This document shows positions 6,643 through 47,528 of a DNA stretch of 64,000 nucleotides, piece after piece. The position numbers and the translations under genes are program-made. The stretch spans positions 1-64,000 of IMG/VR virus record IMGVR_UViG_3300008255_000103; one strand, 5' to 3'. This stretch comes from an uncultured virus (IMG/VR IMGVR_UViG_3300008255_000103). Lineage: Duplodnaviria > Heunggongvirae > Uroviricota > Caudoviricetes. Under the pieces are notes generated by a model. That model was not told the DNA's origin, searched no databases, and saw only the letters and a list, made by a program, of their open reading frames with translations. How positions within the stretch are numbered: position 1 is the stretch's first letter; the number at the start of each line of letters is the position of its first letter.

Positions 6643-7409
6643 TATGTTCCTCGTCTATTTTGCAAATCAGCAATTAATTTATTTCTTATTGTATCAGTAA
6701 CACTAGAATTATAAATATGCATTTCTGCTAATCTTAATTCACATGCATCACCAGTAGTTCCCCATCCACCAATTACAAATTTATCAAAATTACAATAATA
6801 ATAAGTTGAGCTGTAATCAGTGAAATCATAGCTCATTTCAACACCATCAACCCACATACGATGCGTACTTCCAGAAAATTCTACAACCAAATTATGTCTA
6901 TTTCCATCAGCAATAAGTGGAGTGCCATAACGCCTAACATAACGAGAACTCGTACTAAAACTATATTCACAACGAAATATATCAGTTTGTACAGTATATA
7001 TTTTTCTAGGCGCTAAATGTACTGGATAATTATTTCCTGTTCCAGCTGTAAATCCCCATGGCGTATCAGCTACTCCTGTGCTTAATATTTGAACTTTAGC
7101 AGTTATTAAAAAACTTTTTTTGTTTCCTGAAACGCGAGGACCCCAGCCATTAGCTTGTAAACTATGACCATTTATATGAATAGATGGTCCACTATCACCA
7201 CCCCATCCAGTAGGCTCATATGTAGCATTAGTGCTAAATTGAATTAAATCTTCAGTACCCTGTTCATCTGATACGCTAACAACAGTTGATCCACTAACAG
7301 TAGCATTTTCAGCAAACCAATGCGATTGAATAAATCCAGGCACAACATATGCAGGAGGCGGTGGTGCCGATGACTTTACAAAATTAATTATCATTTTACT
7401 CCAATACAA
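6642..7409 (-). CDS. Concanavalin A/LamG-like beta-sandwich protein, probable virion accessory
   Basis: [11 protein letters not shown]...MWVDG...FVIGG...LAEMHIYN pattern. Confidence 0.6.
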
Positions 7410-8619
7410 ATATTAAGTTAACAGTTAAATCGTAATTCAATGATGTATAAGAATATCCCGTATTTGATATATCAATACGATCGCCTGGAAGAATTTCCGT
7501 TCTTAATGGATTTACATTATTATTTAATGATTCATTATAATGACTTGTATTAAGTTCCATAGTTGATAGCAAAAAATCATTTCCATTTATTTGGATATTA
7601 ATTCTTGGATAATAAGAACTATTAGCATATACATTTTGAGATCTGATCTCACAATAAATTAATCTAGCTGTAGGACTTCCCCATCTTATTCCACTATACA
7701 TTCCTAAAAAGGCTGATAAAATGCCAGCATCAGCGCCTGTGTGTCCTGATTCTGCATAAGCACCAGCTATAAAAATTGGCAAGAAGACTGTTCTAGTTGC
7801 TTGAGCATAATACACTTCAATTATATCACCAGCAACAGTACTTAAACTTGGTCCAGATACTTTAATACCCATGTCTCCAGGTGTATCATAATAATTCACA
7901 ACAATATACCATTTAAAAAATTCTACAGTAAATGTTTCAGTACCAAGTGGAGCGCTATTTACTCTTAATGTCCCAGTAATACCACTACCATTATCCCCAA
8001 GTATAGTTATATCCATGCCACCAGTATAACTAAATTCTTCTGCATATAAAATTCTATTCGTTAATGCCGAATCATTATAACCGTCTAACATATATGTTGA
8101 TCCAAGATTAACATATTTGAAATATATTTTTCCAGATTGGTCTAATAAACTGCCCGCTAATCCAACCAATGTATTATAACTATAAGAAATTCCAAAAGAA
8201 GTAGATGATGTAACGCCTTGTTTATCTAATACTCTTACAGCTATATTTTCTCTTAAATTGCGGCTTTGATTAGTTAATATAGTTAAATAATCAATATCTA
8301 TAGCAGTAGTTTCAAAATCAGTATTGGCAATTAAAGGATTCCATTCAGGAGCACCAGTTGGACCAGCAGGACCAACAACCCCTGAATCTCCAGTAGCCCC
8401 AGTAGCCCCAGTAGCCCCAGTCGGACCTGTATCTCCATCAACACCATTAGTTCCTGCCGCCCCTGTAGCACCTGTTGGTCCTGTATCACCAGATAAACCT
8501 CTTTCACCTCTTGGTCCTTGGGTTCCAGTCGAACCAGTAGCTCCAGTCGCTCCCCCTGCACTTGGAGTTACAGATGGAATACTTGTATTGTCATCAAAAT
8601 CATATGGGTATTTTGTCAT
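7396..8619 (-). CDS. Collagen-like (Gly-X-Y) fibre protein
   Basis: ~22 GXY triplets after the N-terminal [10 protein letters not shown], followed by a globular C-terminus. Confidence 0.8.
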
Positions 8620-8651
8620 GTTAGTTACCTAAGATGCATTCTCTATTAGAG

Positions 8652-8672
8652 TATACTAAACTTTTAGTATAT
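8652..8672. promoter_or_regulatory. Palindromic site / probable bidirectional phage promoter between divergent fibre genes
   Basis: TATACTAAA-CT-TTTAGTATA; reads ATACTAA-N7-GTATA on both strands, the motif also found upstream of other genes. Confidence 0.6.
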
Positions 8673-8687
8673 TTACGAGGTTCTTAT

Positions 8688-9662
8688 ATGACAACCACCT
8701 ATCCAGCAGCATTAGACACTAATACAACTTTACCTAAAGTTACCGATAATTTAACTCCAGTTTCTGGATCTGTATATAATCGTTTACAAGAGGCAGTTAT
8801 TAGAGTAGAATATGAATTAGGCGTTAAACCTAGCGGAACTTATTCAACCGTTCGAGCAAGATTAGATGCACTTGAAGGTATTCTTGCAAAACTAAATCTA
8901 AACCTTCAATTTGGTGGAGATATCGAAGCTCAAACAGATCCTACTATTCAACATGTCATCGGTATTAGAGGCGAGACAATTTTAAATAATTTGTCAAAAT
9001 CAGTTGGAGGATCATTAAGATGGGATGGTAGTTATTGGAATCAGGTACAATTATATATGGACGATATATTACCTCCATTTTATGTAGAAATGAATGGACC
9101 TCCAATGCAAGAAGTAAATCAATGGCTATCATATCCTACATTTTATGGCACATATAATTTTGAACCTCCCACTTCTATTACATTAACCGATACTGAAGGA
9201 CACTCACAAATAATACCAATAGTTGATAGGGCTTTATTTTATAGTGATTATGAATTTCAAAAAACAGCATTTGATGGATACGTAACTTTTACATTAACAG
9301 CAGAACATCATCAAATAGAAAAAAGCTTTGACTATACAGTATACTGGGGACAAAAACTTTTTTGGGGTGTTGGTCCTGCTGGTTATACTACAGCATCTGA
9401 TATTACAACCAATTTAGATGGTTACGTTACAAATAGTATTGCTTATAATTTTACTGCAACTGCAGGAGCATCTGAAAAAATCTATTTTGCATGTAGAACA
9501 GCATATGGCGCAGCAACTTTTTATGTTGGGGGATTTGAAGGTGGGTTTACTTTAGTTAGCGATACAATCTCCATAACAAATGATTATGGATTTACTGAAA
9601 ATTATGCGCTTTATGAAAGTGATAATCTTGGATTAGGTACTACCACCGTTACAGTGAGCTAA
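8688..9662 (+). CDS. Probable virion structural/fibre-associated protein
   Basis: GAGG RBS before ATG 8688; N-terminal YPAALD...[13 protein letters not shown] segment shared in part with 22901..24703. Confidence 0.65.
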
Positions 9663-9670
9663 AGGACAAT

Positions 9671-10876
9671 ATGACATCTAGATATTTAACTTGGACGGGA
9701 TCAGACTGGGGCTTAGCTGAAAGCGGTGGCGGCGGTGGCGGAACTGGTACAATTGGACCTATTGGTCCTGCTGGTCCTACTGGAGCTACTGGTGCTACTG
9801 GAGCTACTGGAGCCGCTGGAGATACAGGCGCAACTGGAGCCACTGGTGCTACTGGCGCTACTGGAGCTGCTGGTAGTATAGGATCAACAGGCGCTAGAGG
9901 TCCTACCGGAAATACTGGACCAACCGGACCAACCGGACCAATTGTAGAACATAATTTATTAACATCAATACAAGGCGGTTCTGTAGCAGATGGATATTAT
10001 CATTTAACTAATAGTGAACATGGCTGGTTAACAGATGGATATGTAGATGGATATTGGAATGTAGATAAAGGAGCAATTGGAATAACTGTTTATAATCCTG
10101 GAGATATAATTTATGCTAGTGCAGAAGATATATTAAGTAAAATATCTATTGGCAATGAAGGCGAAACATTAATATCATCAGCAGGATTTCCAGTATGGGG
10201 ATTTCCTACTCATAGTTTATTATCATCATTAGAGGGCGGTTCTGGAATTGATGGTTATTATCATTTAACCAACAATGAACACACTTGGTTAACAGCAGGT
10301 TATACTGCTGGTAAATGGGCTGAAAATAAAGGTGGAACAAACCAAACCACATATACTATTGGTGATTTATTATATGCCAGTGCATCTAATACATTAAGTA
10401 AATTATCAGCATCAATAGATGGTTATATTCTTAAACTAGCATCTGGAATTCCTTCATGGGATATCCATACAAATACATTAACTCAAGTAACTGTTGGAAA
10501 AGATGGTTATATTACACCTGCTTCTGATGGATATCTAACATCTAAGTTTACAGAAGTTAATACAGAAGGATTCCCAGCATATGTGGCTAATACAACCTGC
10601 TACATTAAAAATTTTACAATTACAATGAGTGATGTAATGTTAGCAGGACAAACAGTAGTTATTACAATAAGAAAAAACAATGTGGATACTATACTTACAT
10701 TAACATTAGATAATGCAACTCCTTTGAATTCTGCGGTAACATTGCGAATAGAACAGGATATTACAAATTCTGTATCATTAGTTAATGGTGATAAAGTAAC
10801 GGTTAAATATGTAGCATCTGGCACGGCTGATGCTCAAGATATTTTTGTTACTTTTGATATATTGAAGACAGTATAA
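9671..10876 (+). CDS. Collagen-like fibre protein with duplicated ~88-aa module
   Basis: GXT triplets; two Hx[17 protein letters not shown] repeats; 7 DGY. Confidence 0.8.
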
Positions 10877-10889
10877 GGCTAATAATAAA

Positions 10890-11450
10890 ATGCCAATCAA
10901 TCTAATCTCTAAAATAAAGTCAAAAAATGATGGGTCATTTCCTACTATTGAAGATGTAGATATATATGGCGGTTATCAAGTACGTAGTGATATTGCTGAT
11001 CGTAATAGTATTCCTTCTTTAAATAGAAAAGAAGGAATGATGGTTTTTGTACAAGATGATAGCAAATATTATACTTTAAGTGGAGGCTTAACTGATGGAT
11101 ATTGGACAGAAATATCTTTTGGTGGCGGAAGCTCTATGGCATATGTATTAATAGAAGATGAAGATAGATTAGTTGAATCTGGAGTAAGTGAATTAATCGT
11201 ATCGGCTAATACTGATTCTGTAACAAGGACTATTACATTACCAGCTACGCCTACTGATGGTCAAGAAATAATAATAATACGTCAGGCAGAATATGCTAAT
11301 GGCACGCTTATTATTGATCTAAATGATTCGTTAATAGATTATATAATATCAAGTTGGGGATTTAATTCTTTTACTGATTCAGAATTACATTTGATATATT
11401 ATGGAGATGTATGGTTACATATCTATAGCAGAACTGAGTCTTATGGCTAA
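10890..11450 (+). CDS. Paralogue 1 of tandem modular adhesin-like family
   Basis: Conserved MPINLISK...GGYQVRS...LNRKEGM...KYYTL domain, Gly linker, variable C-terminus. Confidence 0.7.
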   Translation: MPINLISKIKSKNDGSFPTIEDVDIYGGYQVRSDIADRNSIPSLNRKEGMMVFVQDDSKYYTLSGGLTDGYWTEISFGGGSSMAYVLIEDEDRLVESGVSELIVSANTDSVTRTITLPATPTDGQEIIIIRQAEYANGTLIIDLNDSLIDYIISSWGFNSFTDSELHLIYYGDVWLHIYSRTESYG

Positions 11451-11465
11451 TATGTGGAGATTTAA

Positions 11466-12083
11466 ATGCCTATAAATATAATTTCATTATTGAAACCTAA
11501 AAATGATGGCGAATTTCCCATTGCTGAGGATGTTGATGGATATGGTGGATATCAGGTAAGATCAGATATTACAGATAGAAATCTTATACCAGAGTTAAAC
11601 AGAATAGAGGGTATGTTAGTATATGTTCAATCAGATGCTAAATACTATACTTTATCTGGAGGAATAACTAATTCTGATTGGATAGAAGTAACTTTAGGGG
11701 GCGGTTCTACAACCACAAGAGAGATTGTTGTTTTAACTGAACCAACTACATATAATGTTCCCTCTGGAGTAAATCAATTTATTATTAATACATATGTACC
11801 AACTCTGGATGATCCTAGTGGAGTAGTAACTACAGTTGCACTACCTAGTGATCCAACAGATTTGCAAGAAATTATAGTTAAAACTACAAATGCTTCTGGA
11901 AAAAATTATTGGGTTATTGATGTTAATGGTGGAATCAATAATATTGACAATGGTAATGCTGATTTTGGAAGCCCATCTAATTCTTATCCATGGATTATAT
12001 ATAGTAATTATTGTTTAAAAATAAGGTGGACGGGATCAATATGGAGTGTTATCACATTTACATCTCTCACTATTCCAAAGTAA
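11466..12083 (+). CDS. Paralogue 2 of tandem modular adhesin-like family
   Basis: Same N-terminal domain as 10890 and 12097. Confidence 0.7.
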   Translation: MPINIISLLKPKNDGEFPIAEDVDGYGGYQVRSDITDRNLIPELNRIEGMLVYVQSDAKYYTLSGGITNSDWIEVTLGGGSTTTREIVVLTEPTTYNVPSGVNQFIINTYVPTLDDPSGVVTTVALPSDPTDLQEIIVKTTNASGKNYWVIDVNGGINNIDNGNADFGSPSNSYPWIIYSNYCLKIRWTGSIWSVITFTSLTIPK

Positions 12084-12096
12084 AATAGGACATTAA

Positions 12097-12678
12097 ATGC
12101 CAATCAATATAATATCTAAAATAAAGCCCAAAAATGATGGTTTGTTTCCTACATTTGAAGATCGAGATATATTTGGTGGTTATCAAGTACGTAGTAATTC
12201 TACTGATCGCAATAATATACCAGCTTTAAATAGAAAAGAAGGCATGTTAGTTTACACACAAGATGATGATAAATATTATACTTTAAATGGTGGGCTAACT
12301 GATGGATATTGGACAGAAGTAGTATTTGGTGGCGGTGGTGGATCAGATTTTACATTAGTTCATACAGGTATAAGTTATCAAATAGTTGATACAACAAATC
12401 AGTTTATATCTGTAGAATCATTTTTAGGATTTGCTTTAACAATAACATTACCTTTAAATCCTGCTAATGGTCAAGAAGTCATTGTAAAAGATACTGATGG
12501 TGTTTGTAGTTCATTTTCTGAAATATCAATTGAAATATATGGTAATGGACATGATATAATTATTCCTTTTGAATATCGTTATTTGTGGAATGCATATGAA
12601 TGCATTCATATTAAATATAATAGTACATTAGATTTGTGGGGATTAGTAAGTGATTGGTATCCTATTATACAATCATAA
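12097..12678 (+). CDS. Paralogue 3 of tandem modular adhesin-like family
   Basis: Same N-terminal domain; stop overlaps the convergent GT stop (TCATAA). Confidence 0.7.
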   Translation: MPINIISKIKPKNDGLFPTFEDRDIFGGYQVRSNSTDRNNIPALNRKEGMLVYTQDDDKYYTLNGGLTDGYWTEVVFGGGGGSDFTLVHTGISYQIVDTTNQFISVESFLGFALTITLPLNPANGQEVIVKDTDGVCSSFSEISIEIYGNGHDIIIPFEYRYLWNAYECIHIKYNSTLDLWGLVSDWYPIIQS

Positions 12679-13749
12679 TTCACAAAATTGTAGATTGTCT
12701 AATATTCTACTTTTTTCATTATCTGGCAACATACCACTCTTTAATAATGCATTATTTAAAGTAGCTGCTTCTTGTTTTTTACCAATCCAATAAGCAGCAA
12801 CAGCTAATTCATCTATAATCTTCCAATCATAACAAGCCGTTTCTAAAAACAAAGCGTCCTTAGGTTTAGCTATATTACATCCAATCTTAGCATAAAAATA
12901 TGACTTATGAAGTCTATCAAATCTTCTACAATATGAACACAAATAAGACAACGCCTCAACTCTATTTGGTTGATAATTAAAAGCTTCTAGATAAGCGGAT
13001 TCAATTCTTAATGCATCATGAGTATATAATGATTCATGTAGCTTGGCTGCCTCTAATAATGATACATATATCTCTTCTATCCAGCCACCCATTTTACTGC
13101 GCTGTAGATACAATTTTAAAGATTCTTCCTTCTTTCCGGCGTCCCTGTAGCTCTGCGCCGCGTAGAAGACATAGCGGGAGTTATTTGGCTCGACAATCAA
13201 TGCTTTATCGAACGTCATGGCATCCTTAAGATACTTTTGAGGATCATTAGATCGAGACCCGTTAGCTCCAAATATAATCTTACATCCAACCAATGGTTTT
13301 GATACAATATTTATTGGCAATTCTAAATATTCATGTAGAACACCAACATATTTAGATTTTAATTTACTACTAAATAATTGAGTTCTACTATATACAATTG
13401 GACCGTGATTAAACTCGATAGTATAAGCTGATTTTGTGAGGTTTTTAAATACATTGATATTATTTACAGCCAAATAGTCATCAGCATCCATAACTAATAT
13501 ATAATCTGCTTTTGGCTTTGCTAATTGTAATGCTTTATTTCTATTGGTAGAGAAGTCTTCCCATTCATGTTTATGAAGTTCACCGGGGATGTCTTTTAAA
13601 CATTTTTGGATTACTTCTTCTGTGTTGTCTGTAGAGCCTGTGTCGCATATAATCCAATAGTCAATAAAAGGCTTAACAGAATTGAGGCACCTTTCAATAC
13701 AGTGTGCCTCATTCTTAACAATCATAGATAAACATACCGTCATGTACAC
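12673..13749 (-). CDS. Family 2 glycosyltransferase with C-terminal TPR-like helices
   Basis: CLSMIVKNEA, DTGSTD, DFSTNRN, MDADD (DxD), GVLHE, then helical TPR-like region. Confidence 0.9.
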   Translation of the reverse strand: MYMTVCLSMIVKNEAHCIERCLNSVKPFIDYWIICDTGSTDNTEEVIQKCLKDIPGELHKHEWEDFSTNRNKALQLAKPKADYILVMDADDYLAVNNINVFKNLTKSAYTIEFNHGPIVYSRTQLFSSKLKSKYVGVLHEYLELPINIVSKPLVGCKIIFGANGSRSNDPQKYLKDAMTFDKALIVEPNNSRYVFYAAQSYRDAGKKEESLKLYLQRSKMGGWIEEIYVSLLEAAKLHESLYTHDALRIESAYLEAFNYQPNRVEALSYLCSYCRRFDRLHKSYFYAKIGCNIAKPKDALFLETACYDWKIIDELAVAAYWIGKKQEAATLNNALLKSGMLPDNEKSRILDNLQFCEL

Positions 13750-13763
13750 TTATATATCAGACG

Positions 13764-14066
13764 TTATTCTTCCCACACACCAATAATAGTAATTCCTTCT
13801 ACTGGATCTCCGCTAGGCGGTATTGGGCTTGGAGATCCAGTAGACGTCCATATTTCATAACTTAAAGTTACTGTATTCCAAGCTCTCATACGATAATGAT
13901 ATTGTGTTCCAATTGGTACAGCATAGAATTTCCAATTACCTTTTGCTCCAACATATTTAGTTCCGCTTGCAAATGGATCAGTAGGTATTGCCAATCCACC
14001 TCTAACTAAAGAGTAGTTTTCGCTATAAAAAGGTAACGAAAAATAATATCCATCTTCAGAAACCAT
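13764..14066 (-). CDS. Small probable virion protein
   Basis: Likely start MVSEDGYY (TAATG overlap); YRMRAWNT resembles YYMRAYNT at the N-terminus of 15027..17474. Confidence 0.6.
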   Translation of the reverse strand: MVSEDGYYFSLPFYSENYSLVRGGLAIPTDPFASGTKYVGAKGNWKFYAVPIGTQYHYRMRAWNTVTLSYEIWTSTGSPSPIPPSGDPVEGITIIGVWEE

Positions 14067-15022
14067 TATGCAGTCTCCGGTGCAGTTCCATTCCAAGGAA
14101 ATATTATATGTCCAAATTGAACAAATTGATATGATAAATCAGCAGGAAATGCAGTACCAACAGCTACTGCTGTACTTCCCCACCATAAATCATATATAGA
14201 ACCTTTTCTTCCTCTATGAGTTCCCACTGTATTAAGAAGACCCATTGGCATAATTGGCCATTCTCCAGTATCATCATCTTGAGAAATTAAATATTCTCCA
14301 ACCATTGATGTTAAAGCACCTTCACAAGTAACATACATTCCTATTAAATCTCCAGAGACCTCTCCATATATAGTTGCTGTATCATTCCACCAAGCATATT
14401 GTGTCGCATTTGCATCGCCGGCGCGTGCGCCCCAAATACCAGTGGTAAAACCAGTAGTTGGACTACTCGGCATATCAAATAACCAAAATAATTGGCATAC
14501 ATTTGCTACTGTTGTTAATATGCGAGTACATTCACCATCACTAGAGTGCATCACATGAAGTTTACCGGTATATACTGACGAATGAACAAAAGCTGCTGAA
14601 TATACTTGGTGTTGGTCTCCTGCTGTTGGGGGTGATGCAGCAACACCATCTGTACCTGTACCACCAGAACCTATGGCTCCAAACTCACCATTTGGAGATA
14701 CTATAATACGAACATAATTTGTTTGTGTATTATTGTACATATAAAAACAAACTTGCATACTGGTAACTAAATTTTCTAATACAATCCATCGATTACCAGT
14801 ACCTATTGCTGTAGTATCTGTCCAACGGTCAACACCATCATTATTTCCAACAAAATTTCCAGTAGCACTACTACCCCATACTACCCATGGATTAAGTACG
14901 AAATTTTTCATACTATTTTTAATGGCAAGTATTATATTTCGTCCGGTATCGGTAGCTGCTGATCCACTAAATAATTGATTAACATCATATTGCCAAGTTT
15001 TTACTTTTGGAGGTAAAGCCAT
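14066..15022 (-). CDS. Probable virion structural protein
   Basis: G/T/W-rich beta-type composition inside the fibre cluster. Confidence 0.55.
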   Translation of the reverse strand: MALPPKVKTWQYDVNQLFSGSAATDTGRNIILAIKNSMKNFVLNPWVVWGSSATGNFVGNNDGVDRWTDTTAIGTGNRWIVLENLVTSMQVCFYMYNNTQTNYVRIIVSPNGEFGAIGSGGTGTDGVAASPPTAGDQHQVYSAAFVHSSVYTGKLHVMHSSDGECTRILTTVANVCQLFWLFDMPSSPTTGFTTGIWGARAGDANATQYAWWNDTATIYGEVSGDLIGMYVTCEGALTSMVGEYLISQDDDTGEWPIMPMGLLNTVGTHRGRKGSIYDLWWGSTAVAVGTAFPADLSYQFVQFGHIIFPWNGTAPETA

Positions 15023-15026
15023 TTTA

Positions 15027-17474
15027 TTATCCTTCTATTATTATTTGTGCTGACTTACATGTTACAATATTCCCACCACCAGAATTTGCAATCCATAAAC
15101 GAACTTCAAAAACTCCAACCACAGTTCCGGCAAAAGCAGCAGTAATATCTGTTTCAATCATACTTGGTATTAATTGACTGGATGCACCAGTATTATCAAT
15201 TTGTGACCCAGATACTTGAGCAGTTCCACTAATATCATATAAATCTGCTGTTGCTGCATAAGTTGCAGTAGCATTTGTTGATTCTAATATACAACGAAAT
15301 TTTACCGTTCTAGTTGTTGGCCATTGCGATGTATCAACATAACAAGCGCCAATTGCAGTAGCAATTCCTGTAGAATCTGTAGCCAATCCCTTCAATAAAT
15401 CCATTTCAATTGGGAAATTGCTACCGCTTGCAACATTTGGAATCCAAGCGGGGACTCCAGATGCTAAAGCTAATACATAGCCATCATCTGATGCTGGTAA
15501 TGCTGCTAAAATATTAGTATTGGAAGCATATAATATATCTCCAACATTATAAGATGTTAATCCCGTTCCACCTTGAGCTGTGTGCCAATAACCATCTAAA
15601 TAATTATCACTAAGGGCATTTAACATAGCTGCTGTAACATAGCCATCAACATGTGAGCCATCAATAGCGAAATTATTTGCGGAAGTAACAGAACCGCCAG
15701 GTAAATCTATATATGCACCATTCTCAGCCTTTAAGTAAGGCTCGGCACCCATTAGATTAACATATAGTTTCTGAAGACCATCAAAATAAATATGTTCAGC
15801 TTGGTTATTATTATCAAATACTATATTATCATAACCATCAGTTCCAATCAGATGAATATCATTACTATTAGCTGCATTTCTAGCACTTAATGCAGTTAAA
15901 TTATTTGGGACTCTTAATACACCAGATTGTGCGGGTGCAAGTCCAATATCAAAATAAGCGCCATTAATATCTACATTAAAATTTCCATATGATACTAATC
16001 CATATTGAAATACTATCGCTCCGCTTTGATTACTTGGAATTCCAGCACCAGATGATAGATATAAATTTCCACCATAACCAGAAGATAATGAACTTCCAGC
16101 AATTATTGATAATACGCCACCATAGCCAACACTAGCATTACCAGCATATATTGATAACGCTCCACCGTTACCAATATTTACAGAATCTCCTGCGGCTATA
16201 TTAAAAGAACCACCATCAGCCCCAATACCATTAGCATCTTGTGCATTAATTGTTAATAGTTGCCCTGAACCAGATGTTTGTAATACTTGTGAAATAACGG
16301 GGGTTACAGTATCTTTATCAAAAGTTAGATTAGATGTATAAAATAATGTGCTAGTATCAAGTATGTGTATCTTAGGGTTAATGCCATTTTTAATTTGAAC
16401 ATAACCATCAGCAGTAGTTCCGCTTCCAGATCCAAGAATTAATGCTCCGCCAGTAGATCCACCAAAAGATGAAGTTTGCGCCAGTATTGTTAATGTTTGA
16501 CCATTTCCAGTAGCCTGTGTTGTTTGGAAAATACTTGGATTATTTACATCTTCATGAAATCTAACAAAACTTAGTCCAACTTCTAATTGTGGAATATCAT
16601 TTACTTCGAAGGAATGAATATATCCATCTCCGACATTGTGAGTAATACCTTCATTGGATAAATCACCAATAAGAATAAGATCTCCAAGAGTTTCTATTAG
16701 ATTAAGGTTTCCAGAATCAAGATCATTTCTTACATGAATTCCTTCTGTATTTTGTAATCTAATAAATCCAGTAGTTGACGCGCCTGTTAATCCATGAGAT
16801 ATACTATCTTCAACTAACAAATCATTAGCAATATACACCGAAGTAGTATTAGATCCTAATTGAACTCTATCAAATATATCTACTTGAAGAATATCTACAT
16901 CTCCAGTATTTGTAGCATTTCTACCTCTAACAACAGCATCTTCTGTAGCAACATTTGGAATACGAATAATGCCAGATTGCGCAGGATATGTTCCTAATGC
17001 CAAATACCCATCAATAGATAATGTTCCAGTAAAAATAGGTAAAGAAGCGCCAATAGTATAACCATCTCCACCAGTATTATATGCAAATTTCCAACCAGAA
17101 AGAGTTTCATCCCAAAACATACAAGAATGATCTCTAGGGATAAGACCTGTAGTATATCCTCTAACAGCGGCTAAACCTGTAATTTGTGGCGGAACATCTT
17201 GCGTTGTCGCATATGGCGAAGTTGGTGGATGTATCCAGTCATAACTATTTAAATGGAAAAAATAACCATCACTAGAATTAAGTGGTTTTAAAAAATTATC
17301 TATTTTAGATTGAACTATTCTATTAACTATTATATTTTCAAGATTAATAGAACTATAGCCGTCAGGACAATATATTGCATTTGAATCTGGTTGATCGTTA
17401 ACAATCCAATCAACGTAACCAACAGCACCTGGCGCTGCTGTATTATAAGCTCTCATGTAATATTGTATTGGCAT
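15027..17474 (-). CDS. Long tail fibre/spike-like protein
   Basis: GGxLxIxAG glycine-rich repeats, GGTG-x-Y-x-GDILYAS module; 10 DGY. Confidence 0.7.
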   Translation of the reverse strand: MPIQYYMRAYNTAAPGAVGYVDWIVNDQPDSNAIYCPDGYSSINLENIIVNRIVQSKIDNFLKPLNSSDGYFFHLNSYDWIHPPTSPYATTQDVPPQITGLAAVRGYTTGLIPRDHSCMFWDETLSGWKFAYNTGGDGYTIGASLPIFTGTLSIDGYLALGTYPAQSGIIRIPNVATEDAVVRGRNATNTGDVDILQVDIFDRVQLGSNTTSVYIANDLLVEDSISHGLTGASTTGFIRLQNTEGIHVRNDLDSGNLNLIETLGDLILIGDLSNEGITHNVGDGYIHSFEVNDIPQLEVGLSFVRFHEDVNNPSIFQTTQATGNGQTLTILAQTSSFGGSTGGALILGSGSGTTADGYVQIKNGINPKIHILDTSTLFYTSNLTFDKDTVTPVISQVLQTSGSGQLLTINAQDANGIGADGGSFNIAAGDSVNIGNGGALSIYAGNASVGYGGVLSIIAGSSLSSGYGGNLYLSSGAGIPSNQSGAIVFQYGLVSYGNFNVDINGAYFDIGLAPAQSGVLRVPNNLTALSARNAANSNDIHLIGTDGYDNIVFDNNNQAEHIYFDGLQKLYVNLMGAEPYLKAENGAYIDLPGGSVTSANNFAIDGSHVDGYVTAAMLNALSDNYLDGYWHTAQGGTGLTSYNVGDILYASNTNILAALPASDDGYVLALASGVPAWIPNVASGSNFPIEMDLLKGLATDSTGIATAIGACYVDTSQWPTTRTVKFRCILESTNATATYAATADLYDISGTAQVSGSQIDNTGASSQLIPSMIETDITAAFAGTVVGVFEVRLWIANSGGGNIVTCKSAQIIIEG

Positions 17475-17531
17475 TATCTCTCCCTATCCAAGATATCTAT
17501 TTATTACTAAATACAGATATAACATCAATAT

Positions 17532-18224
17532 TTAGATAGCGATTACATGAATTGTTACAACTGCTGTTCTAACTTCAGCATTATCGTATGTTACAGTTAC
17601 AGTTAAATCATATGATCCACCATTTAAACTAACAAAACCATCACCTTCCCAAGTATCACCAGTTTGTGTATATAATTGAGAATCTCCACCATCTAAATTA
17701 CCAGAAAATAACACAACATGTTCACCACTTTCAATAGTTCCATAAGCATAAAAAGGAGCGGTTGGATTATACGATGGAGATTCGTCTGTGGGATCAGTTA
17801 TTGTAATTCCCATCAAATATGTAAACCCAGTATTCTCTACTTGGTAAATTGTACTAAATGTTGAAAGCCTAAATGTATCTGTGCTCGTTTGATTCGCCAC
17901 AAATACAACATCATATCCATCAGTCGATATGCTAATTGTCATTTCCGTCAATATACCAGAAGCGTTATAAATAGAACCATACCCGTCCAAACCAAGTCCA
18001 CCAGCAATATAAGCATTTCCAATTTCTCTTACAACTAAAGCGTCCAACCAATAAGAATATCCATCAGAAGCTGTTGATTGATTTTGAATAAAACATAACG
18101 TATTAATTCTTGTATCTGTATTTGCCGGAACAGTAAACCTACAGACTTCAACACCATGTGTCGAGGTCACAACCGTTCCTGTAATTAATCTTCCATTTTG
18201 TATTGCATATCCATCATTAGGCAT
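17532..18224 (-). CDS. Fibre-associated protein: shared N-terminal domain plus Ig-like C-terminus
   Basis: N-terminus homologous to 18237 and 20717; C-terminal GSYDLTVTVTY Ig-like strand; 4 DGY. Confidence 0.6.
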   Translation of the reverse strand: MPNDGYAIQNGRLITGTVVTSTHGVEVCRFTVPANTDTRINTLCFIQNQSTASDGYSYWLDALVVREIGNAYIAGGLGLDGYGSIYNASGILTEMTISISTDGYDVVFVANQTSTDTFRLSTFSTIYQVENTGFTYLMGITITDPTDESPSYNPTAPFYAYGTIESGEHVVLFSGNLDGGDSQLYTQTGDTWEGDGFVSLNGGSYDLTVTVTYDNAEVRTAVVTIHVIAI

Positions 18225-18236
18225 AATATCCTCTTA

Positions 18237-20705
18237 TCAGGGTGGAGTGTCTTTTATAATATCAGCTTCTTCCATATTTGTCATTGTTCCGTTGAAGCCA
18301 ACCCCATCTCCCATCTTCCAATATCCTACAAGGTTTGCTGAACTCGTTAAGTCTGTTGGTATTCCTGCGTTGTATATTGCTTCAACTTCTGATAAGGAAA
18401 GAACTTTATCCCAAATTGATATGTCTTTTAAATTTCCAATCCAATAATTTTGATTATCAGGTCTTCTTCCAATATTAAAATTAGCCGCATTGGATATTGA
18501 TAATGTTAAAGTATCGTGTCCTACGGTTGCTGGAACTAAAACTCCATTCATATAGAATATAACACCAGCTCCTGTTTTGCTTCCATCATAAGTAACAACA
18601 CCATGTCTCCAAACACTATCTCTGTAACTTCCAAATCCTGTTGTTGTATTTGTAAAAATATAATTGTTTCCCGCCCCAGCGTCATTTATTAAGTATACTT
18701 GAATTCTATGTAAAGAATCAATAAATATAAAATACCCAGTGTATGTAGTACTACCTAAATTTTTTGCTATAATATTAGTATTTGTTCCACCTGTACATTT
18801 GAACCAAAAGGACCAAGAACGAGTTTCCGTTCCGTTTAAATCATGAACATCTCCCATGTCAATAAATTCGTCGGAGCCATCAAATACCATAGAGTTTCCA
18901 ATATATGTTCTTGACTCAACGTCAGTGATTTCCATATTGACCTGAGTTCCATGCAGTCCGTTGCCCGAGAAGTCAGGAACTCCATTTGCTGCAAGACTAT
19001 AATTTTCTCCACACCTCCACCAAGCCGCAAGATTAGCTGCGCAAGATGTTGTAGTTAAATCAATCGGAACCTTATTGTTATAAATTTCTGTTACTTCAGT
19101 TGGAGAAAGCTCTTTATCCCATACCGATACGTCAGAAAGAGAACCTTTATACCATAAATCATTATGATTTCTTGCCCCTAACCTAAAATCACTGGCATTT
19201 GCTGCTGTTGCCGATAACGTATCATAATTTGTAGTTGTTGCAACTGGAGCATTATCTATATAAAAAACAACACCTGCTGCTTTTCCTGTAGAATCTTTTG
19301 TTATCATACAATAATGCCAATTATTATCATTGTATGAATTATTAGTTTGTATTTCAAGAGTATTTGTAAAATATGTATTTATTTGAAAAAAAGCTATTTT
19401 ATTAGTATTCGTACAAAGTATTTGATATCCGGGGGCGCCAGCCGCTACACTAATTTTTGATACAAAAATCCCAGTATGTGTGATTGACCATTTAAACCAA
19501 AAACTAATAGAAAAAGCATCGTTATAATCAAAATCTAATATATCTCCCATATTTACATATTCGTTTGTTCCACCAAACACTAAAGCTTGACTTCCAGGAC
19601 TCGCAAACTGAATATCAGAAACTTCCATGTTAGTTGCTGTTCCATCATATCCATTTGTTGATTCATCAGGAATTACAGGAAACTGATAATCTGAACTATG
19701 ATCTAAAATAGTTGGATATGTATCTCCATCTCCACATCTCCAATAAGCTACCATATTAGAGGCTGATGAAAGGTTCTTTATGTTAGTTGGAATCCCTGAA
19801 TTATAAATAGCTTCAACTTCAGAAAGAGAAAGCTCTTTATTATATATAGATGCTTCATCTATGTTACCAATCATATAATCAAGAGTTCCATTCATAGAAC
19901 CAATGGTGCAAGGCATCGTATCTTGAATAGTTGATGTTAAATTATTAATATTTGTAACAGGAGCTTCATATCCCCCGTCAACATAAAAAGCCGTTCCAGA
20001 AACATTACTACTTCCATCATAAGTAGCAACAATATGATGCCAATTTCCATCATTCAAAATAGAAGATGTGCTTACTGATAACTGACTTGTATTTGCTACG
20101 CTTACAATATCAAATCTAATTGATCCAATAACTCCCCCAAGTCCTTCTTTTTTCAAACCCCATCCTCTATAATTTCCAGCTGGACCTTCCTTACCAATAA
20201 AAAAATTCCAAGGGTTTACATCCGATGTTTTAAACCAACAACTAATACTAAAAGCATCAGTCCTCTCAAAACTTAACACATTTCCCATTGTTACAAATTC
20301 ATTAGTTCCACCAAACAACAAAGAATATCCATCAATAAATTGTTCAACAGAATAAATTTCCATCGAACATGCTACTCTATATATATTCCCATCCGCCGAA
20401 GCTGTTGTGGCATAAATATTATCATTCGTAACAGCTAAAATTACTTCAAAACCTGATGTTGTTCCTTCTTCATTATACTTAGATACATCTCCAACAATCG
20501 TTGCATATCCATCTTGATTATATACATTTGCTGCTAATTTATAAGAACTGCTTATTTGTCCGTTTACTTTTTGAAATAAACATGTTGCTTCTACCCTTGC
20601 AAAAGTTTCCAGTGGAACCGCCCAAGAGCATACATTTACTCCATTAGCTGCCGTTGCAACTGTTCCGGTAGTTTTAATTCCTTGTATTAATTGTCCATCA
20701 GCCAT
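18237..20705 (-). CDS. Protein with three LamG/concanavalin A-like domains (putative receptor/glycan binding)
   Basis: Three repeats of FGGTNE.V.MG...FSIS.WFK...WHH.V.TYDGS...GNIDE.SIYNKELS. Confidence 0.85.
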   Translation of the reverse strand: MADGQLIQGIKTTGTVATAANGVNVCSWAVPLETFARVEATCLFQKVNGQISSSYKLAANVYNQDGYATIVGDVSKYNEEGTTSGFEVILAVTNDNIYATTASADGNIYRVACSMEIYSVEQFIDGYSLLFGGTNEFVTMGNVLSFERTDAFSISCWFKTSDVNPWNFFIGKEGPAGNYRGWGLKKEGLGGVIGSIRFDIVSVANTSQLSVSTSSILNDGNWHHIVATYDGSSNVSGTAFYVDGGYEAPVTNINNLTSTIQDTMPCTIGSMNGTLDYMIGNIDEASIYNKELSLSEVEAIYNSGIPTNIKNLSSASNMVAYWRCGDGDTYPTILDHSSDYQFPVIPDESTNGYDGTATNMEVSDIQFASPGSQALVFGGTNEYVNMGDILDFDYNDAFSISFWFKWSITHTGIFVSKISVAAGAPGYQILCTNTNKIAFFQINTYFTNTLEIQTNNSYNDNNWHYCMITKDSTGKAAGVVFYIDNAPVATTTNYDTLSATAANASDFRLGARNHNDLWYKGSLSDVSVWDKELSPTEVTEIYNNKVPIDLTTTSCAANLAAWWRCGENYSLAANGVPDFSGNGLHGTQVNMEITDVESRTYIGNSMVFDGSDEFIDMGDVHDLNGTETRSWSFWFKCTGGTNTNIIAKNLGSTTYTGYFIFIDSLHRIQVYLINDAGAGNNYIFTNTTTGFGSYRDSVWRHGVVTYDGSKTGAGVIFYMNGVLVPATVGHDTLTLSISNAANFNIGRRPDNQNYWIGNLKDISIWDKVLSLSEVEAIYNAGIPTDLTSSANLVGYWKMGDGVGFNGTMTNMEEADIIKDTPP

Positions 20706-20716
20706 ATTAATCCTTA

Positions 20717-21793
20717 TTACGGAGGTGCATCAGCAATTATATCTCCAGATTCCATATTAGTCATTGTTCCATTGAAACCAGAATCACTATGATCTAAAAT
20801 AGTTGGATAAGTGTCTCCATCTCCACATCTCCAATAAGCTACCATATTTGAAGCAGATGAAAGATTTTTTAGATTAGTTGGAATCCCTGAATTATAAATC
20901 GCTTCAACCTCAGGAAGAGAAAGTTCTTTATTGTATACTGATGTTTCGTCTATGTTGCCTTCAAATGCATAACCAGTGCCATCCCATTGACCAATTCTAA
21001 ATGGAGCAGTTGTAATAATAGAGCCTGTTAAAGTATTTTTCCATATTGTAAGGTCAACAATTTCACCATCAATATAAATATGCATGCCAGATACAAGTGA
21101 TGATCCATCATAGGTACATATACAATGATGCCAATTACCATTATTTATTGTTGCTGTAGTTGTAAAAACCTGAAACTCATTAGTTGATGATGTATTTGAT
21201 AATAAGAAAGTAATAGCTCCAGTATAAGTACCACCATTGAGATATACAGCATAGCCTGCATATGGTGCCGTGCCAGAATTTTTAGCAATAAGAAACTTAT
21301 CATTTGTAGTTGTTTTACACCACAAACTTATAGAAAAAGCATCAGTTCTCTCAAAATTCAACACATTTCCCATATTCACATATTCGTTCGTTCCTCCAAA
21401 CAGCAAAGAATAATAGTTCCCAAATTGTTCAACAACATAAATTTCCATAAAACATGTAACTCTATATTCTTCTCCATCTGTTGTTGCCGTTATAACTGAT
21501 AACGTAGATCCACTTGCAAATAATGTTACAGTCATTGCAACAGAACTCTCTTCCGTATTTACAACAGTCGGTCCTGAAACAATTGAAACATCCGCATCGT
21601 CTCTTCTAACAGTCGCTATTAATTTATATGAACTTTTAGCCGTATTATCGTAAACTTGTTGAACAGTACAATGAACTTCAACCCTTGCAGTAGTATTTAT
21701 TGGAATACTCCATACACAAACCTCAACACCATTTGAAGATGTTTGTATACTTCCTGCTGTTTTTCTTCCTAAAATTATATCTCCATCAGCCAT
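20717..21793 (-). CDS. Single-LamG paralogue of 18237..20705
   Basis: Shared N-terminal domain, one LamG domain, near-identical GFNGTMTNME tail. Confidence 0.85.
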   Translation of the reverse strand: MADGDIILGRKTAGSIQTSSNGVEVCVWSIPINTTARVEVHCTVQQVYDNTAKSSYKLIATVRRDDADVSIVSGPTVVNTEESSVAMTVTLFASGSTLSVITATTDGEEYRVTCFMEIYVVEQFGNYYSLLFGGTNEYVNMGNVLNFERTDAFSISLWCKTTTNDKFLIAKNSGTAPYAGYAVYLNGGTYTGAITFLLSNTSSTNEFQVFTTTATINNGNWHHCICTYDGSSLVSGMHIYIDGEIVDLTIWKNTLTGSIITTAPFRIGQWDGTGYAFEGNIDETSVYNKELSLPEVEAIYNSGIPTNLKNLSSASNMVAYWRCGDGDTYPTILDHSDSGFNGTMTNMESGDIIADAPP

Positions 21794-21807
21794 GATTAAT
21801 TACCTTA

Positions 21808-22896
21808 TTATGCTGGCGCAATGTCAGTTACTGTTCCACTACTTCCTTTAAATTTTAATGCACCACCCTCAACAAATAAATAACCGCCAGAAGTCGCACT
21901 GCCTGTTGGAACTGCATCTACATCTTTAATAAAAATCGCTCCCTGAGCACCTTGCATATTTGTTCCATTAGCACCATTTATAATTAAGTTACCCATATTG
22001 GAATTGCCTGCTTTAAGATAAATATTACCAGCAGTAAGTCCGTCACCACTCCAAATCAAAATATCACCACCAGCATAAGTATTGGTATAGTCTGATTGTC
22101 CAAAAACAATTAATCTTATTCCATTATGAGAAGATGAAGGAGCAATTCCAAATACTGGAAGAGGAAAATCTGATTCAATTAATAAATATCCGTCACATAT
22201 TACAGATGAACCTCCAAATGGTGTTGGAGATGCACTAGTAAAAAATATCGGTGCAGTAGCTAAATATAATGTTGTTGGATAAGTATCCCCAGGACCAGCA
22301 GGACCTGTAGCTCCTGTAACACCAGCTACTCCTGTAGGACCAGCTGTTCCTGTAGCTCCTTGAGGTCCCGTTGCGCCTTGAGGTCCAGTAGCTCCAGCTA
22401 CCCCAGTAGGACCGGCTGTTCCTGTAGCTCCTTGTGGTCCTGTAACTCCAGCAGGACCAGTAGCTCCAGCAGGACCAGTAGCTCCTGTAGCACCATCAAC
22501 TCCAGCAGGACCAGTAGCTCCTGTAGCACCATCAACTCCAGCAGGACCAGTAGCTCCTGTAACTCCAGCAGGACCAGTAGGACCACCATAAGGACCTGTA
22601 GCACCTTGTGGTCCAGTAACTCCATCTATTCCAGCAGAACCGGCAGGTCCAGTAGGACCAGCAGGACCTGTCATTCCAATTCCAGCCGGTCCAGTTGGAC
22701 CAGCAGCACCAGTAGGTCCAGCAATACCGGCAGGACCAGCAGGACCAGTTGCTCCAGCGGGACCAGGAGAACCAGTTGGTCCAAAAGATGGACTGCGAGG
22801 ATCCCAACGTTCTGCAGCTGCATTATAAGCTAAGATGTATCCATCAGCAGGAACTTCAAAGGAGCCAATAATTGTTTTGTTTTTAGTATTAGCCAT
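21808..22896 (-). CDS. Collagen-like fibre protein
   Basis: ~55 uninterrupted GXY triplets (GPT/GAT/GPA); C-terminal [17 protein letters not shown]. Confidence 0.85.
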
Positions 22897-22900
22897 TTAT

Positions 22901-24703
22901 TTATAACCTCGAAAGCTCTCTCCACTCAATAGTAGCTGAAGCCCTTCTATCATCTGTACCATATGAGTCTACTTGAATTATTAATTCGGAACCAGATGTA
23001 TCAACAGTAACCGACCAATTGGTTCCGTTATCATCTATTAAGTCATCATTAAGAATATCTATTACTAATACTCCACTCTCCTGATGTGCTAAAGCATTAT
23101 ACTTAAATCTTGCACAAGTTGATGCTCCAGTAGTATTTACAACAATTATTCTAATGTTAATGTCATAAGATTTTCCATCTTCCATTTCTATATTATTTAG
23201 TGTGCCAGGTATTGTCAAGTTAAATTGACCACCATTTACTTGGTAACCATCTAATAATATTCTTGAGAATTGAGAATCTCCTGGATTTGTAAAGTAATTT
23301 ACAGCATGAGATTTTTGTCCTATAATTCTTGCATCAGCAGCATAACCAAAAACTGCACAATGTATTGCAGAAGTTGTATTGCCATATCCTTCAGCACGAG
23401 AATAATTACCAGTAACAATATTAGAATCACCATTAATAAATACACCATTAGAATTTGATGTATTATTTTGACCAGCAATTAAAGAGTGCTGAGAACTAAT
23501 AATATTGCTAGATCCTAATAATACAAGACTATTAGTTCCAGTTATGCTATTTAACATTCCATTAATAACAGTAGAATAATTTCCTGATACTGTATTTGAT
23601 AATCCATTTAATATAGTAGATTCGTTTCCAGTAGCTTGGTTTCCGTAACCATCAGCAACAAAGGAAGAATCTCCTTGGGCTCTATTTCCAGAACCACCTA
23701 AAATTACAGACAAATACCCATCAGCTAAATTGGTATTACCACCAAGAACTGATGAATAATATCCGTCAGCAGTATTACTTAACCCGCCACCAATCATTGT
23801 ATATTGTTGTGTAGCAGAGTTTGAGCTACCACCTAAAATTGATGAATATATAGCAGAGGCAGTATTGTCTAAGCCGCCACCTATAATAGAATAATTTGCG
23901 GTTACTTGATTTCTGTATCCACCAACTGAGGTAGAATAATCGCCAGTTACACCAATTGATAAATTACTACTTGCTAAATTAACAATACCAACTTTAGTAT
24001 TATCTATTGTTGATTGATTAATTGGTCTATTGGCTACAATATTTTGCGACTCATAAATAGGGTCAAAAACAACCGGTAATCTTGTAGGATACCAAGTTCC
24101 AGACCTATATAATAAGGCATATCCATCTATTGGAGTTGATGAAGATATTGGAACTCCTTGAATTCCTATAACTGTTTGATTTATCTTTGTACCAGATAGA
24201 TCTCCAGAGGCATAGAAACCAATTTGAGATTCCCAATAACCATCTGTATCATTCCAAGTAAGATGATATCCATCTAAGGGCATTGTCGATACTAATGGTC
24301 TATCTTGTAAACCAATTACAGTCTGGCTGTAATATCCTCCTGACAGATCTCCCCCTGCTAACCAAAGATCGGTAGGTATAAGTTGCCATGCACCATCTCT
24401 TCTTTCATATAGACCTTCATAGACATATCCGTCACGTCTTAGGTAAAGAGAGCCATCAACTCTATCTTCTGTTGGATATCCATCACCAACACTAATAGAA
24501 ACACCGCCATATCCATCAACATAAAATGGATTGGTTACGTTAGGAGCTGGTGCATTAGGGTTATTTATTCTTGCCTCAAGAATATCCAAACGTACCCTAA
24601 CATCAGCATAAACTCCATATGGAGTAATACCAAGAGCCCTCTCTATCGCTTCTACTGCATCAGTTAATGCACTAATTGCTGCTGCTTTATCATCAATAAC
24701 CAT
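22901..24703 (-). CDS. Tail spike/adhesin-like protein with GGxxN beta-helix repeats
   Basis: ~14-aa SSILGGxxNxA repeats; AGGDLSG motifs; 10 DGY. Confidence 0.75.
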   Translation of the reverse strand: MVIDDKAAAISALTDAVEAIERALGITPYGVYADVRVRLDILEARINNPNAPAPNVTNPFYVDGYGGVSISVGDGYPTEDRVDGSLYLRRDGYVYEGLYERRDGAWQLIPTDLWLAGGDLSGGYYSQTVIGLQDRPLVSTMPLDGYHLTWNDTDGYWESQIGFYASGDLSGTKINQTVIGIQGVPISSSTPIDGYALLYRSGTWYPTRLPVVFDPIYESQNIVANRPINQSTIDNTKVGIVNLASSNLSIGVTGDYSTSVGGYRNQVTANYSIIGGGLDNTASAIYSSILGGSSNSATQQYTMIGGGLSNTADGYYSSVLGGNTNLADGYLSVILGGSGNRAQGDSSFVADGYGNQATGNESTILNGLSNTVSGNYSTVINGMLNSITGTNSLVLLGSSNIISSQHSLIAGQNNTSNSNGVFINGDSNIVTGNYSRAEGYGNTTSAIHCAVFGYAADARIIGQKSHAVNYFTNPGDSQFSRILLDGYQVNGGQFNLTIPGTLNNIEMEDGKSYDINIRIIVVNTTGASTCARFKYNALAHQESGVLVIDILNDDLIDDNGTNWSVTVDTSGSELIIQVDSYGTDDRRASATIEWRELSRL

Positions 24704-47113: not shown

Positions 47114-47528
47114 TAAGATTCTCCATTTTACTTAACTTAGTTATTGCTTCAGGATTTACTAAACTCATACTAATTGTTTCATGTACAGCCCATCCAAGTA
47201 ATAAATGTCTATTAGATTTAATTATTCTTTTTCTTGGATCAATAATTATAGTATTATGATCAAATGGTTCTAATTTTGGAATATCTGGTCCTAAAACTTC
47301 AATATCCATTCTAACAGAAACTTCCTCAAGTAATTTTAAATCTTCAAGTTCTATAATTTCTCCGGGAAAACATAGCTTATTTTCTTTAAGATACAAATTA
47401 GATTTAGGAAGATATGTAATACTATCTTCATTTACAGAGGTTAATAATTTTTTGTGTAACTTTTCCCCAAGTATATTCAGTAACCAGTTCTTGCATTTTA
47501 GGAGAGAATTTTGCATGGTAGCCTCCAT
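47106..47528 (-). CDS. Hypothetical protein (start uncertain)
   Basis: Fills the gap between two GT genes; the track start overlaps the upstream gene by ~100 nt. Confidence 0.45.
   Translation of the reverse strand: MEATMQNSLLKCKNWLLNILGEKLHKKLLTSVNEDSITYLPKSNLYLKENKLCFPGEIIELEDLKLLEEVSVRMDIEVLGPDIPKLEPFDHNTIIIDPRKRIIKSNRHLLLGWAVHETISMSLVNPEAITKLSKMENLNE

Follow-up and report, generated by a model that had tools for sequence, protein, structure and literature searches.

An Asp-Gly-Tyr Tripeptide Concentrated in the Tail-Side Virion Proteins of a Clade of Huge Uncultured Phages

The fibre cluster and its recurring tripeptide

The stretch analyzed here (the window, 64,000 nucleotides) comes from the beginning of one virus record of 138,879 bp and 33% G+C (IMG/VR IMGVR_UViG_3300008255_000103), of which it makes up the initial 64 kb, and the element under study is the tripeptide Asp-Gly-Tyr (DGY), which recurs throughout a cluster of fibre genes at positions 7396-24703. 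The record includes the virion genes of a contractile-tailed phage (sheath, baseplate J and wedge proteins, major head protein), together with a TubZ-like tubulin, a GH25 lysin, many sugar enzymes and at least eight collagen-like proteins. Since a 444-kb contig also encodes an identical copy of the 600-aa fibre protein of the cluster, and the relatives are 200-480 kb long, the record is probably part of a huge phage genome. The open reading frames (ORFs) were simple longest-ORF calls, and some start codons may be off. Table 1 shows the virion and sugar genes of the window. In addition to the entries shown there, two of the three tandem paralogues at the end of the plus-strand block have a common DGY context, and the nearest NCBIfam model for the glycosyltransferase within the cluster is the SunS-type peptide S-glycosyltransferase TIGR04195, with a score (61 bits) far below the cut-off of 350.

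Table 1. Virion and sugar genes of the window, with the number of DGY tripeptides in each product. Series of six numbers refer to the genomes G000 to G005.
Feature	Position	Strand	DGY	Matches and remarks
Collagen-like tail-fibre protein, 407 aa	7396..8619	-	1	Pfam Collagen 2.5e-12; PHROG tail-fibre families
342-aa protein	8634..9662	+	2	No family match
Collagen-like tail-fibre protein, 401 aa	9671..10876	+	7	Includes DGYVDGY and a duplicated module
Three tandem paralogous small virion proteins, 186/205/193 aa	10890..12678	+	1 each	PHROG 23630/25379/24134
GT2 glycosyltransferase within the fibre cluster	12673..13749	-	0	Pfam Glycos_transf_2 3.6e-13
Two ORFs without assigned role, 110 and 318 aa	13764..15022	-	1 and 0
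815-aa fibre protein	15027..17474	-	10	Each DGY in a different context; G001 orthologue has 9
230-aa protein	17532..18224	-	4
Two Laminin_G_3 (concanavalin-like) proteins, 822 and 358 aa	18237..21793	-	2 and 0	PF13385 7e-58 and 5e-22
Collagen-like fibre protein, 362 aa	21808..22896	-	2
Beta-helix tail fibre/spike, 600 aa	22901..24703	-	10	Foldseek: phage tailspikes, E 3e-7
Collagen-like protein, 184 aa	24790..25344	-	0	Part of the fibre block, just outside the range of the sequence-only reading
dTDP-glucose 4,6-dehydratase-like enzyme	42578..43534	-		Far end of cassette; TIGR01181 357 bits, cut-off 365
GT2 "a" of the cassette	43538..44365	-
335-aa cassette gene	44375..45382	-		No family match; poor Atlas model
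GT2 "b" of the cassette	46427..47113	-
GT4-like (GT-B) glycosyltransferase	47428..48555	-		Pfam Glyco_transf_4 and Glycos_transf_1, about 1e-6, at or just below curated cut-offs
1348-aa virion protein	50098..54144	-	5	5/5/7/7/7/3
2387-aa virion protein	54192..61355	-	7	7/6/8/7/5/4
Baseplate J-like protein, 1365 aa (to 65452 in the genome)	61355..64000	-	1	Pfam Baseplate_J 2.4e-21; PHROG 6

The 15 ORFs at 7396-24703 contain 42 DGY in 5,707 aa, compared with 2.03 expected from the composition of each protein. In 5000 per-protein shuffles the mean was also 2.03 (standard deviation 1.40) and the maximum was 9. DGY is the most over-represented of all tripeptides in these ORFs (Poisson p 8e-40), and the next in rank are the collagen triplets ATG and TGA, at about 1e-12; the first-order Markov expectation is 8.0, a figure that is inflated by the motif itself. 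An earlier, sequence-only reading of this stretch had counted the motif by hand and had roughly estimated, from composition, a chance expectation of about 2. Its counts were reproduced, both in total and for the individual genes (10 at 15027-17474, 10 at 22901-24703, 7 at 9671-10876 and 4 at 17532-18224), as was the low number away from the fibres (1 DGY in the 6,298 aa of 25 ORFs at 25.4-45.4 kb). Its expectation agreed with composition and shuffles alike, and the enrichment over shuffled controls, which it had proposed as a check, held. The excess is limited to the exact tripeptide: DGF, NGY, EGY and SGY occur once each and DGW not at all, while the permuted orders YGD, DYG, GDY, GYD and YDG are found 1, 1, 1, 3 and 4 times. 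Tyr follows 42 of the 80 Asp-Gly dipeptides in the set.

Selection on DGY acts at the protein level and not on the DNA, because codon usage is ordinary, matches lie in frame and conserved sites differ by synonymous codons. Every possible codon for Asp, Gly and Tyr (two, four and two) occurs in the motif, at background frequencies and on both strands; the corresponding nucleotide pattern GAYGGNTAY is in the sense reading frame at 89 of its 93 occurrences genome-wide, and the 13 sites conserved in every family member (five or six genomes) are written with 2-6 different codon triplets each. The mixed codons, the use of both strands and the protein-level selection noticed in the sequence-only reading are thus borne out, and a DNA- or RNA-level motif is ruled out by the frame and by the synonymous differences. 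A fold-specific or paralogous repeat was rejected as the source on other grounds. With a threshold of 7 shared residues out of 20 in the flanks, only eight of the 42 DGY resemble another one, which leaves 38 independent contexts, and a search for a flanking consensus over 1,237 distinct contexts from the clade found none that extended the motif. There are mild signals at the flanks (Thr, Ala, Val or Ile before; Trp, His, Gly or Val after), including a 4.8-fold enrichment of Trp at the +1 position after DGY.

Spread over the virion and the clade

Six genomes, G000 to G005, were compared, the relatives having been found through related-locus searches. Genome-wide, 89 DGY were observed and 9.1 expected; the virion-gene blocks hold 85 of them against 6.5 expected, and all other blocks hold 4 against 2.65. 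The genome has three GIY-YIG/NUMOD3 homing-endonuclease-like genes (window 2332-3048 and 41877-42611; genome 132359-133141), two of which carry a lone DGY, and these two make up half of the four non-virion occurrences. Orthologous families have either no DGY in all six genomes or at least one in nearly all. In addition to the giant proteins shown in Table 1, a 1963-aa family (7/5/7/5/6/3 in G000 to G005), a 522-aa family (5/5/6/4/3/3) and the sheath (3/3/2/3/1/1) are consistently positive. The major capsid protein, a 1656-aa protein and proteins of 769, 696 and 560 aa are free of DGY in all six, and so are the enzymes, save for lone single occurrences in a few families. The mark therefore sits on the tail side of the virion and not on everything that is exposed. 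Outside the tail module, a Kelch-repeat protein (L025:8877-10190 in the relative G001) has 4-6 DGY and is kept in four large relatives.

The excess extends across the clade. Five whole relatives of 200-480 kb gave observed and expected numbers of 87/16.1, 73/15.5, 99/9.8, 80/20.9 and 44/17.8. Loci around orthologues of the 522-aa protein (43-85% identity, G+C 27-44%) had a ratio of at least 6.7 in 70 of 71 cases; the sole exception, L191, contains a truncated orthologue with a single DGY and otherwise only families that never carry the motif. For the 600-aa fibre 718 homologues were found, and the 120 listed carry 1,101 DGY against 21.9 expected, in a search that was seeded on shared five-residue words and may somewhat favour DGY-bearing relatives. 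Scans seeded on the 522-aa protein and on the sheath found no close relative free of DGY, and all of their matches lay inside the clade. A rough DNA-pattern control that is not frame-aware gave 0.11-0.18 occurrences per kb in four distant capsid relatives and 0.31-0.67 here.

The nearest cultured phage, judged by its capsid protein (53% identity), is Bacillus phage G, which has 33 DGY against 21.1 expected genome-wide and none in its sheath. It is too distant to serve as a gene-content outgroup, since 114 of 159 clade families are absent from it. The only local DGY excess in phage G lies in six adjacent large proteins with a common repeated domain (record 316783-347675; L208-L210). These hold 13 DGY, against about 2 expected for the six, and a 460-aa neighbour holds one more. 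The recurring motifs there are DGYWYVRG, which accounts for 6 of the 14, and DGY.VK.GGN; three more of the 14 have a second recurring context in common. This local excess is explained by paralogy. It resembles the present case in that DGY accumulates in large structural proteins, but in phage G the motif belongs to a long recurring context, whereas here 38 of 42 have unrelated flanks. Cultured phages gave no match, either to a near-DNA search or to protein searches with three of the fibre or virion proteins; a pattern search with the 815-aa fibre was negative too. One clade member was binned in a metagenome-assembled genome of Acidobacteriota (Terriglobia), and the capsid protein of a cultured Tunturiibacter phage shares 33% identity; these links are too weak to name a host and are at odds with the low G+C of this phage.

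The sites themselves turn over rapidly. Alignment of 18 orthologous families yielded 136 DGY sites, of which 61 are private to a single genome and 11 are shared by all six; indels contain many of the 136. At the column of the DGY Tyr, 8% of the aligned residues are Phe, compared with 34% at other Tyr columns; the usual replacements are Ser, Thr, Asn, Asp, Glu and Gln. Members of the 600-aa fibre family without DGY have Asp, Glu or Gln at the Tyr position, in line with the view of the sequence-only reading that DGY stands where generic fibre motifs usually have other residues; for a comparison with cultured phages no match was found. In this family, positions 91, 144 and 193 are conserved (43-59 of 60 homologues) while the other sites turn over. 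The loop after the second strand of a 122-aa protein (genome 100060-100428) has one DGY in three genomes and DGYYA-DGYYA-DGYTI-DGYES here, and TDGYADGYK is inserted in the 522-aa protein of another relative. A model of the 122-aa protein is a weakly immunoglobulin (Ig)-like sandwich with the four tandem units in a 25-residue low-confidence loop. In an AlphaFold2 model of the 600-aa fibre (predicted local distance difference test 78), coil holds the Asp and Gly of 9 out of 10 sites and the Tyr of five, with Tyr starting a strand at three; the DGY turns are presumably exposed to solvent. With its site turnover, its tandem DGYxx units in loops and a Tyr that rarely becomes Phe, DGY evolves like a tag. 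The sequence-only reading had proposed a short linear motif recognized by a modifying enzyme or a binding partner, with Tyr O-glycosylation by the phage's own glycosyltransferases as its best candidate. The first part of this proposal is supported by specificity, independent contexts, turnover, loop insertion, restriction to one set of virion proteins and spread through the clade; all of these support a short linear motif selected at the protein level for its own sake. The second part is weighed below.

Sugar genes beside the baseplate and other neighbours

The sugar genes form a cassette immediately behind the genes for the baseplate and the giant virion proteins. The gene order, which all six genomes share, runs baseplate J, 2387-aa protein, 1348-aa protein, GT4-like transferase, [GT2b], 335-aa gene, [GT2a] and dTDP-glucose 4,6-dehydratase-like gene, with the whole block on one strand. 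Rhamnosyltransferase-like genes were found in addition to the dTDP-glucose 4,6-dehydratase-like gene, and the GT4-like protein has a profile match to the PDB entry 7mi0 (5.7e-10). Presence and absence were scored over the 30 records in which the GT4-like gene occurs. Five of these lack both GT2a and GT2b, and the DGY excess is fully kept: the ratios in the five records, some of which are near-identical to each other, are 11.1-16.0 with a mean of 13.1, compared with 13.8 in the other 25 (Mann-Whitney p 0.74). The 335-aa gene is missing from two of the 30, one of which is 97% complete. The GT2 of the fibre cluster has a clear orthologue in one of the five whole relatives and a weak match of 30% identity in G002. 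Only the GT4-like gene of the cassette is present in all eight relatives that are at least 90% complete, and it is left as the candidate reader of DGY. When the GT4-like protein was paired with the 122-aa DGY-loop protein in a complex prediction, the result scored 0.00 against a mark of 0.32 and argues neither for nor against binding.

The proteins scanned with Pfam came from 112 of this genome's 121 ORFs and, for the clade core, from 85 of the 88 families that it lacks. No kinase, sulfotransferase, Fic protein or isoaspartyl methyltransferase was found among the proteins scanned, and a tyrosine-phosphatase-family protein (PF03162, 6.4e-9) is kept in four large relatives. No membrane O-oligosaccharyltransferase was detected in the 112 ORFs; the record is probably part of a larger genome, and a host enzyme is possible. 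A second sugar cluster at genome positions 103416-118443 (L003:2966-17993) encodes a patatin-like lipase, a dehydratase, a C-methyltransferase, FkbM methyltransferases, a cupin, GT1s and an 815-aa GT2-GT4 fusion. It adjoins a collagen-like protein with a BclA C-terminal domain and a 1085-aa collagen protein, and it resembles a BclA-type glycosylated fibre system.

Other features of the locus and the clade are recorded here. Inverted repeats at 8345-8491 and 9754-9873 (92-111 nt, 71-74% complementary) flank the start of the plus-strand gene block in the fibre cluster; the idea of an invertible segment was rejected, as the repeats are the collagen-coding repeats of two divergent fibre genes. A TubZ/PhuZ-like tubulin gene (window 40152-41507; Pfam Tubulin 7.7e-14, TubZ-like_C 1.2e-6) is kept in four of the six genomes compared. 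The large subunit of ribonucleotide reductase (window 29001-31517) has ORF lengths of 838, 1161, 567, 839, 836 and 598 aa across the six, a variation that suggests inteins, splits or frameshifts. In the region at genome 122328-124644 (L004:2378-4694), the major capsid ORF has 337 aa here and 239 aa in two relatives, and it adjoins an HNH endonuclease gene on the opposite strand; in some members of the clade the capsid gene may therefore be interrupted by a mobile element. Clade-core genes seen in the relative G001 (L029, L038, L039, L040) encode a release factor (PCRF/RF-1), trigger factor, DnaJ, peptide deformylase, ClpP, a Thg1-like enzyme, a SET-domain protein and the tyrosine-phosphatase-family protein.

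What may read the tripeptide

The explanation that we favour, at a probability of roughly one in three, is that DGY is a short recognition tag on tail-side virion proteins whose Tyr hydroxyl is covalently modified by a clade-conserved enzyme, most plausibly by glycosylation. The carriers, in a large clade of uncultured myoviruses with genomes of 200-480 kb, would be the fibres, the baseplate periphery, the sheath and proteins of the neck region, and selection would keep the tripeptide itself rather than a fold. During tail assembly in the cytoplasm, this enzyme, encoded by the phage, would recognize the exposed D-G-Y turn and modify the tyrosine hydroxyl. The most plausible modification would be a 6-deoxyhexose-type sugar, for which the GT4-like transferase (47428-48555) and the dTDP-glucose 4,6-dehydratase-like enzyme (42578-43534) might be the suppliers. 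We infer the existence of a reader, its covalent action, the sugar on Tyr and the identity of the enzyme; for the first of these speak the exact order and identity of the residues, the use of Tyr and not Phe, the loop insertions and the turnover, which together suggest a stereospecific reader of the tripeptide. A slightly more tentative version would make DGY the acceptor of a new cytoplasmic protein-tyrosine modification, most likely Tyr O-glycosylation by a soluble GT-B enzyme, that coats tails and fibres and not heads.

Several observations weigh against a sugar on DGY. The major capsid protein, although exposed, is without DGY in every genome compared. Collagen-like proteins, of which the genome has at least eight (one of them ending in a BclA C-terminal domain), are a different and known type of target, with Thr in collagen repeats as the site, and the many sugar enzymes could equally serve such proteins. 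Because of the unmarked capsid and these alternative targets, the case for glycosylation is not strong; the same capsid result means that a tail-specific role fits better than a general glycan shield. The fibre-cluster GT2, GT2a, GT2b and the 335-aa gene are not obligatory readers, since each is absent from relatives that keep the excess, and the presence of the GT4-like gene in complete genomes is weak evidence because any core gene would pass. The scans described above provided no DGY-free close relative as a contrast for reader genes, and the flanks showed no extended consensus. Ser or Thr in place of the Tyr of DGY is weakly enriched at orthologous sites (14 of 33 cases, compared with 86 of 324), a difference that is not significant (p 0.066). 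To our knowledge no Tyr-directed transferase with a DGY site has been described, and a modification is something that sequence alone cannot reveal.

The foremost competitor, which we consider unlikely, is that nothing modifies DGY and that it acts as a non-covalent hook, a paratope-like element of Asp, Gly and Tyr that provides multivalent weak adhesion to glycans of the host envelope. Tyr, Gly, Asp and Ser dominate antibody binding loops. In such a hook, with the same small likelihood, Tyr would stack on a sugar ring and donate its hydroxyl, Asp would bond sugar hydroxyls and Gly would free the loop. The tail-specific distribution with no DGY in the capsid protein, the enrichment of Trp after the motif and a turnover like that of host-contact surfaces are all consistent with adhesion, as are the tandem units in the Ig-like loop of the 122-aa protein, whose weak Foldseek matches are antibody variable domains (E about 3e-3, TM 0.4-0.47). 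However, generic adhesion should tolerate DGW, NGY, EGY, YGD and DSY, which stay at background (0-1 each, compared with 42); the strict order points instead to a stereospecific reader, and the sheath and neck-side proteins are no obvious host-contact surfaces.

Strict identity would also suit a protein reader, and the exposed D-G-Y turn might be a docking site for another phage protein (a decoration protein, a collagen-like fibril or an assembly chaperone). The limitation of the mark to tail-side proteins agrees with docking, the genome encodes many collagen-like proteins with varied heads, and the relatives have trigger factor and DnaJ homologues. We hold docking to be quite unlikely, since three residues are very short for protein-protein recognition, the rapid gain and loss (61 of 136 sites in a single genome) suits a fixed stoichiometric contact poorly, and no candidate partner was identified.

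At equally low odds, nothing reads DGY, and it is only a structural preference, an Asx or type I' turn followed by a strand-starting aromatic residue, made common by ancestry and by folding and stability. Every DGY-rich protein is beta-rich, the coil and strand-start positions in the 600-aa model are as such a turn would have them, and there are sites that persist, namely the three kept in 43-59 of 60 fibre homologues and the 11 shared by all six genomes. Nonetheless, a turn bias should also raise NGY, DGF and DGW, which are at background; no overall surplus of DGY is seen in the beta-rich virion proteins of phage G (33 against 21.1 over its whole genome, none in the sheath), and the large beta-rich proteins of 1656, 769, 696 and 560 aa in the same virion have no DGY in six genomes. 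A lost Tyr, moreover, gives way to Ser, Thr, Asn, Asp, Glu or Gln rather than to Phe, and tandem DGYxx units have been inserted in a disordered loop. Asp-Gly is the sequence most prone to succinimide formation, and the need for Tyr over Phe and for Asp over Asn or Glu, as well as the conserved PF03162 protein, would fit another covalent chemistry (Tyr phosphorylation, sulfation or nucleotidylation, or a succinimide or isoaspartate at the Asp-Gly bond that cross-links tail components), which we regard as very unlikely given that the scanned proteins (112/121 ORFs; 85/88 core families) include no kinase, sulfotransferase, Fic protein or isoaspartyl methyltransferase.

A modified Tyr in DGY would have partial parallels. 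Three-residue glycosylation sequons include N-X-S/T and the general O-glycosylation motif of Bacteroidota, D-(S/T)-(A/I/L/V/M/T). Like these, DGY is very short and order-specific, combines a hydroxyl residue with a leading Asp, is gained and lost over many unrelated proteins of the exported or surface kind and, as expected of a sequon, is enriched on and limited to its target class (85 against 6.5; 4 against 2.65 in the other blocks). Unlike them, its hydroxyl residue is a Tyr at +2 after Gly, and its carriers are phage virion proteins assembled in the cytoplasm. Tyr O-glycosylation with rhamnose-rich linkers is known from Gram-positive S-layers (Paenibacillus alvei, Thermoanaerobacter; PMC2943079). 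The acceptor residue is the same, and the rhamnose-rich linkers described there fit the dTDP-glucose 4,6-dehydratase-like and rhamnosyltransferase-like genes found here. Unlike the process supposed here, the S-layer glycan is built on a lipid carrier, and an O-oligosaccharyltransferase attaches it, outside the cytoplasm, to only a few tyrosines; the accessible part of that source gives no sequon (PMC2943079).

A full-text literature search turned up no account of a DGY motif in phages. For a lineage of large aquatic phages, a 2025 paper reports four core glycosyltransferase families and cites mycobacteriophage virion glycosylation, with no motif in the portion available (PMC12619734). In its paraphrase of Freeman et al. 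2023, mycobacteriophage glycans are placed at the C-termini of capsid and tail-tube subunits (PMC12619734). As far as that account goes, the two cases are alike in having phage-encoded glycosyltransferases beside structural genes (here in six of six genomes) and virion proteins as the supposed targets, and they differ in that the capsid is DGY-free here in all six genomes and the sites are internal, multi-copy and on fibres, baseplate and sheath.

That one class of virion proteins keeps a three-residue mark at 10-25 times chance throughout hundreds of huge phages, all of them uncultured, implies a shared and so far undescribed piece of tail biology, which could be a new way of modifying proteins, a new principle of adhesion or a new signal for assembly. 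DGY density separates tail-surface proteins from other virion proteins (inner tail, capsid) in genomes where most of them have no family assignment. If the tyrosine-modification reading is true, DGY would be the first sequon-like code described for phage virions.

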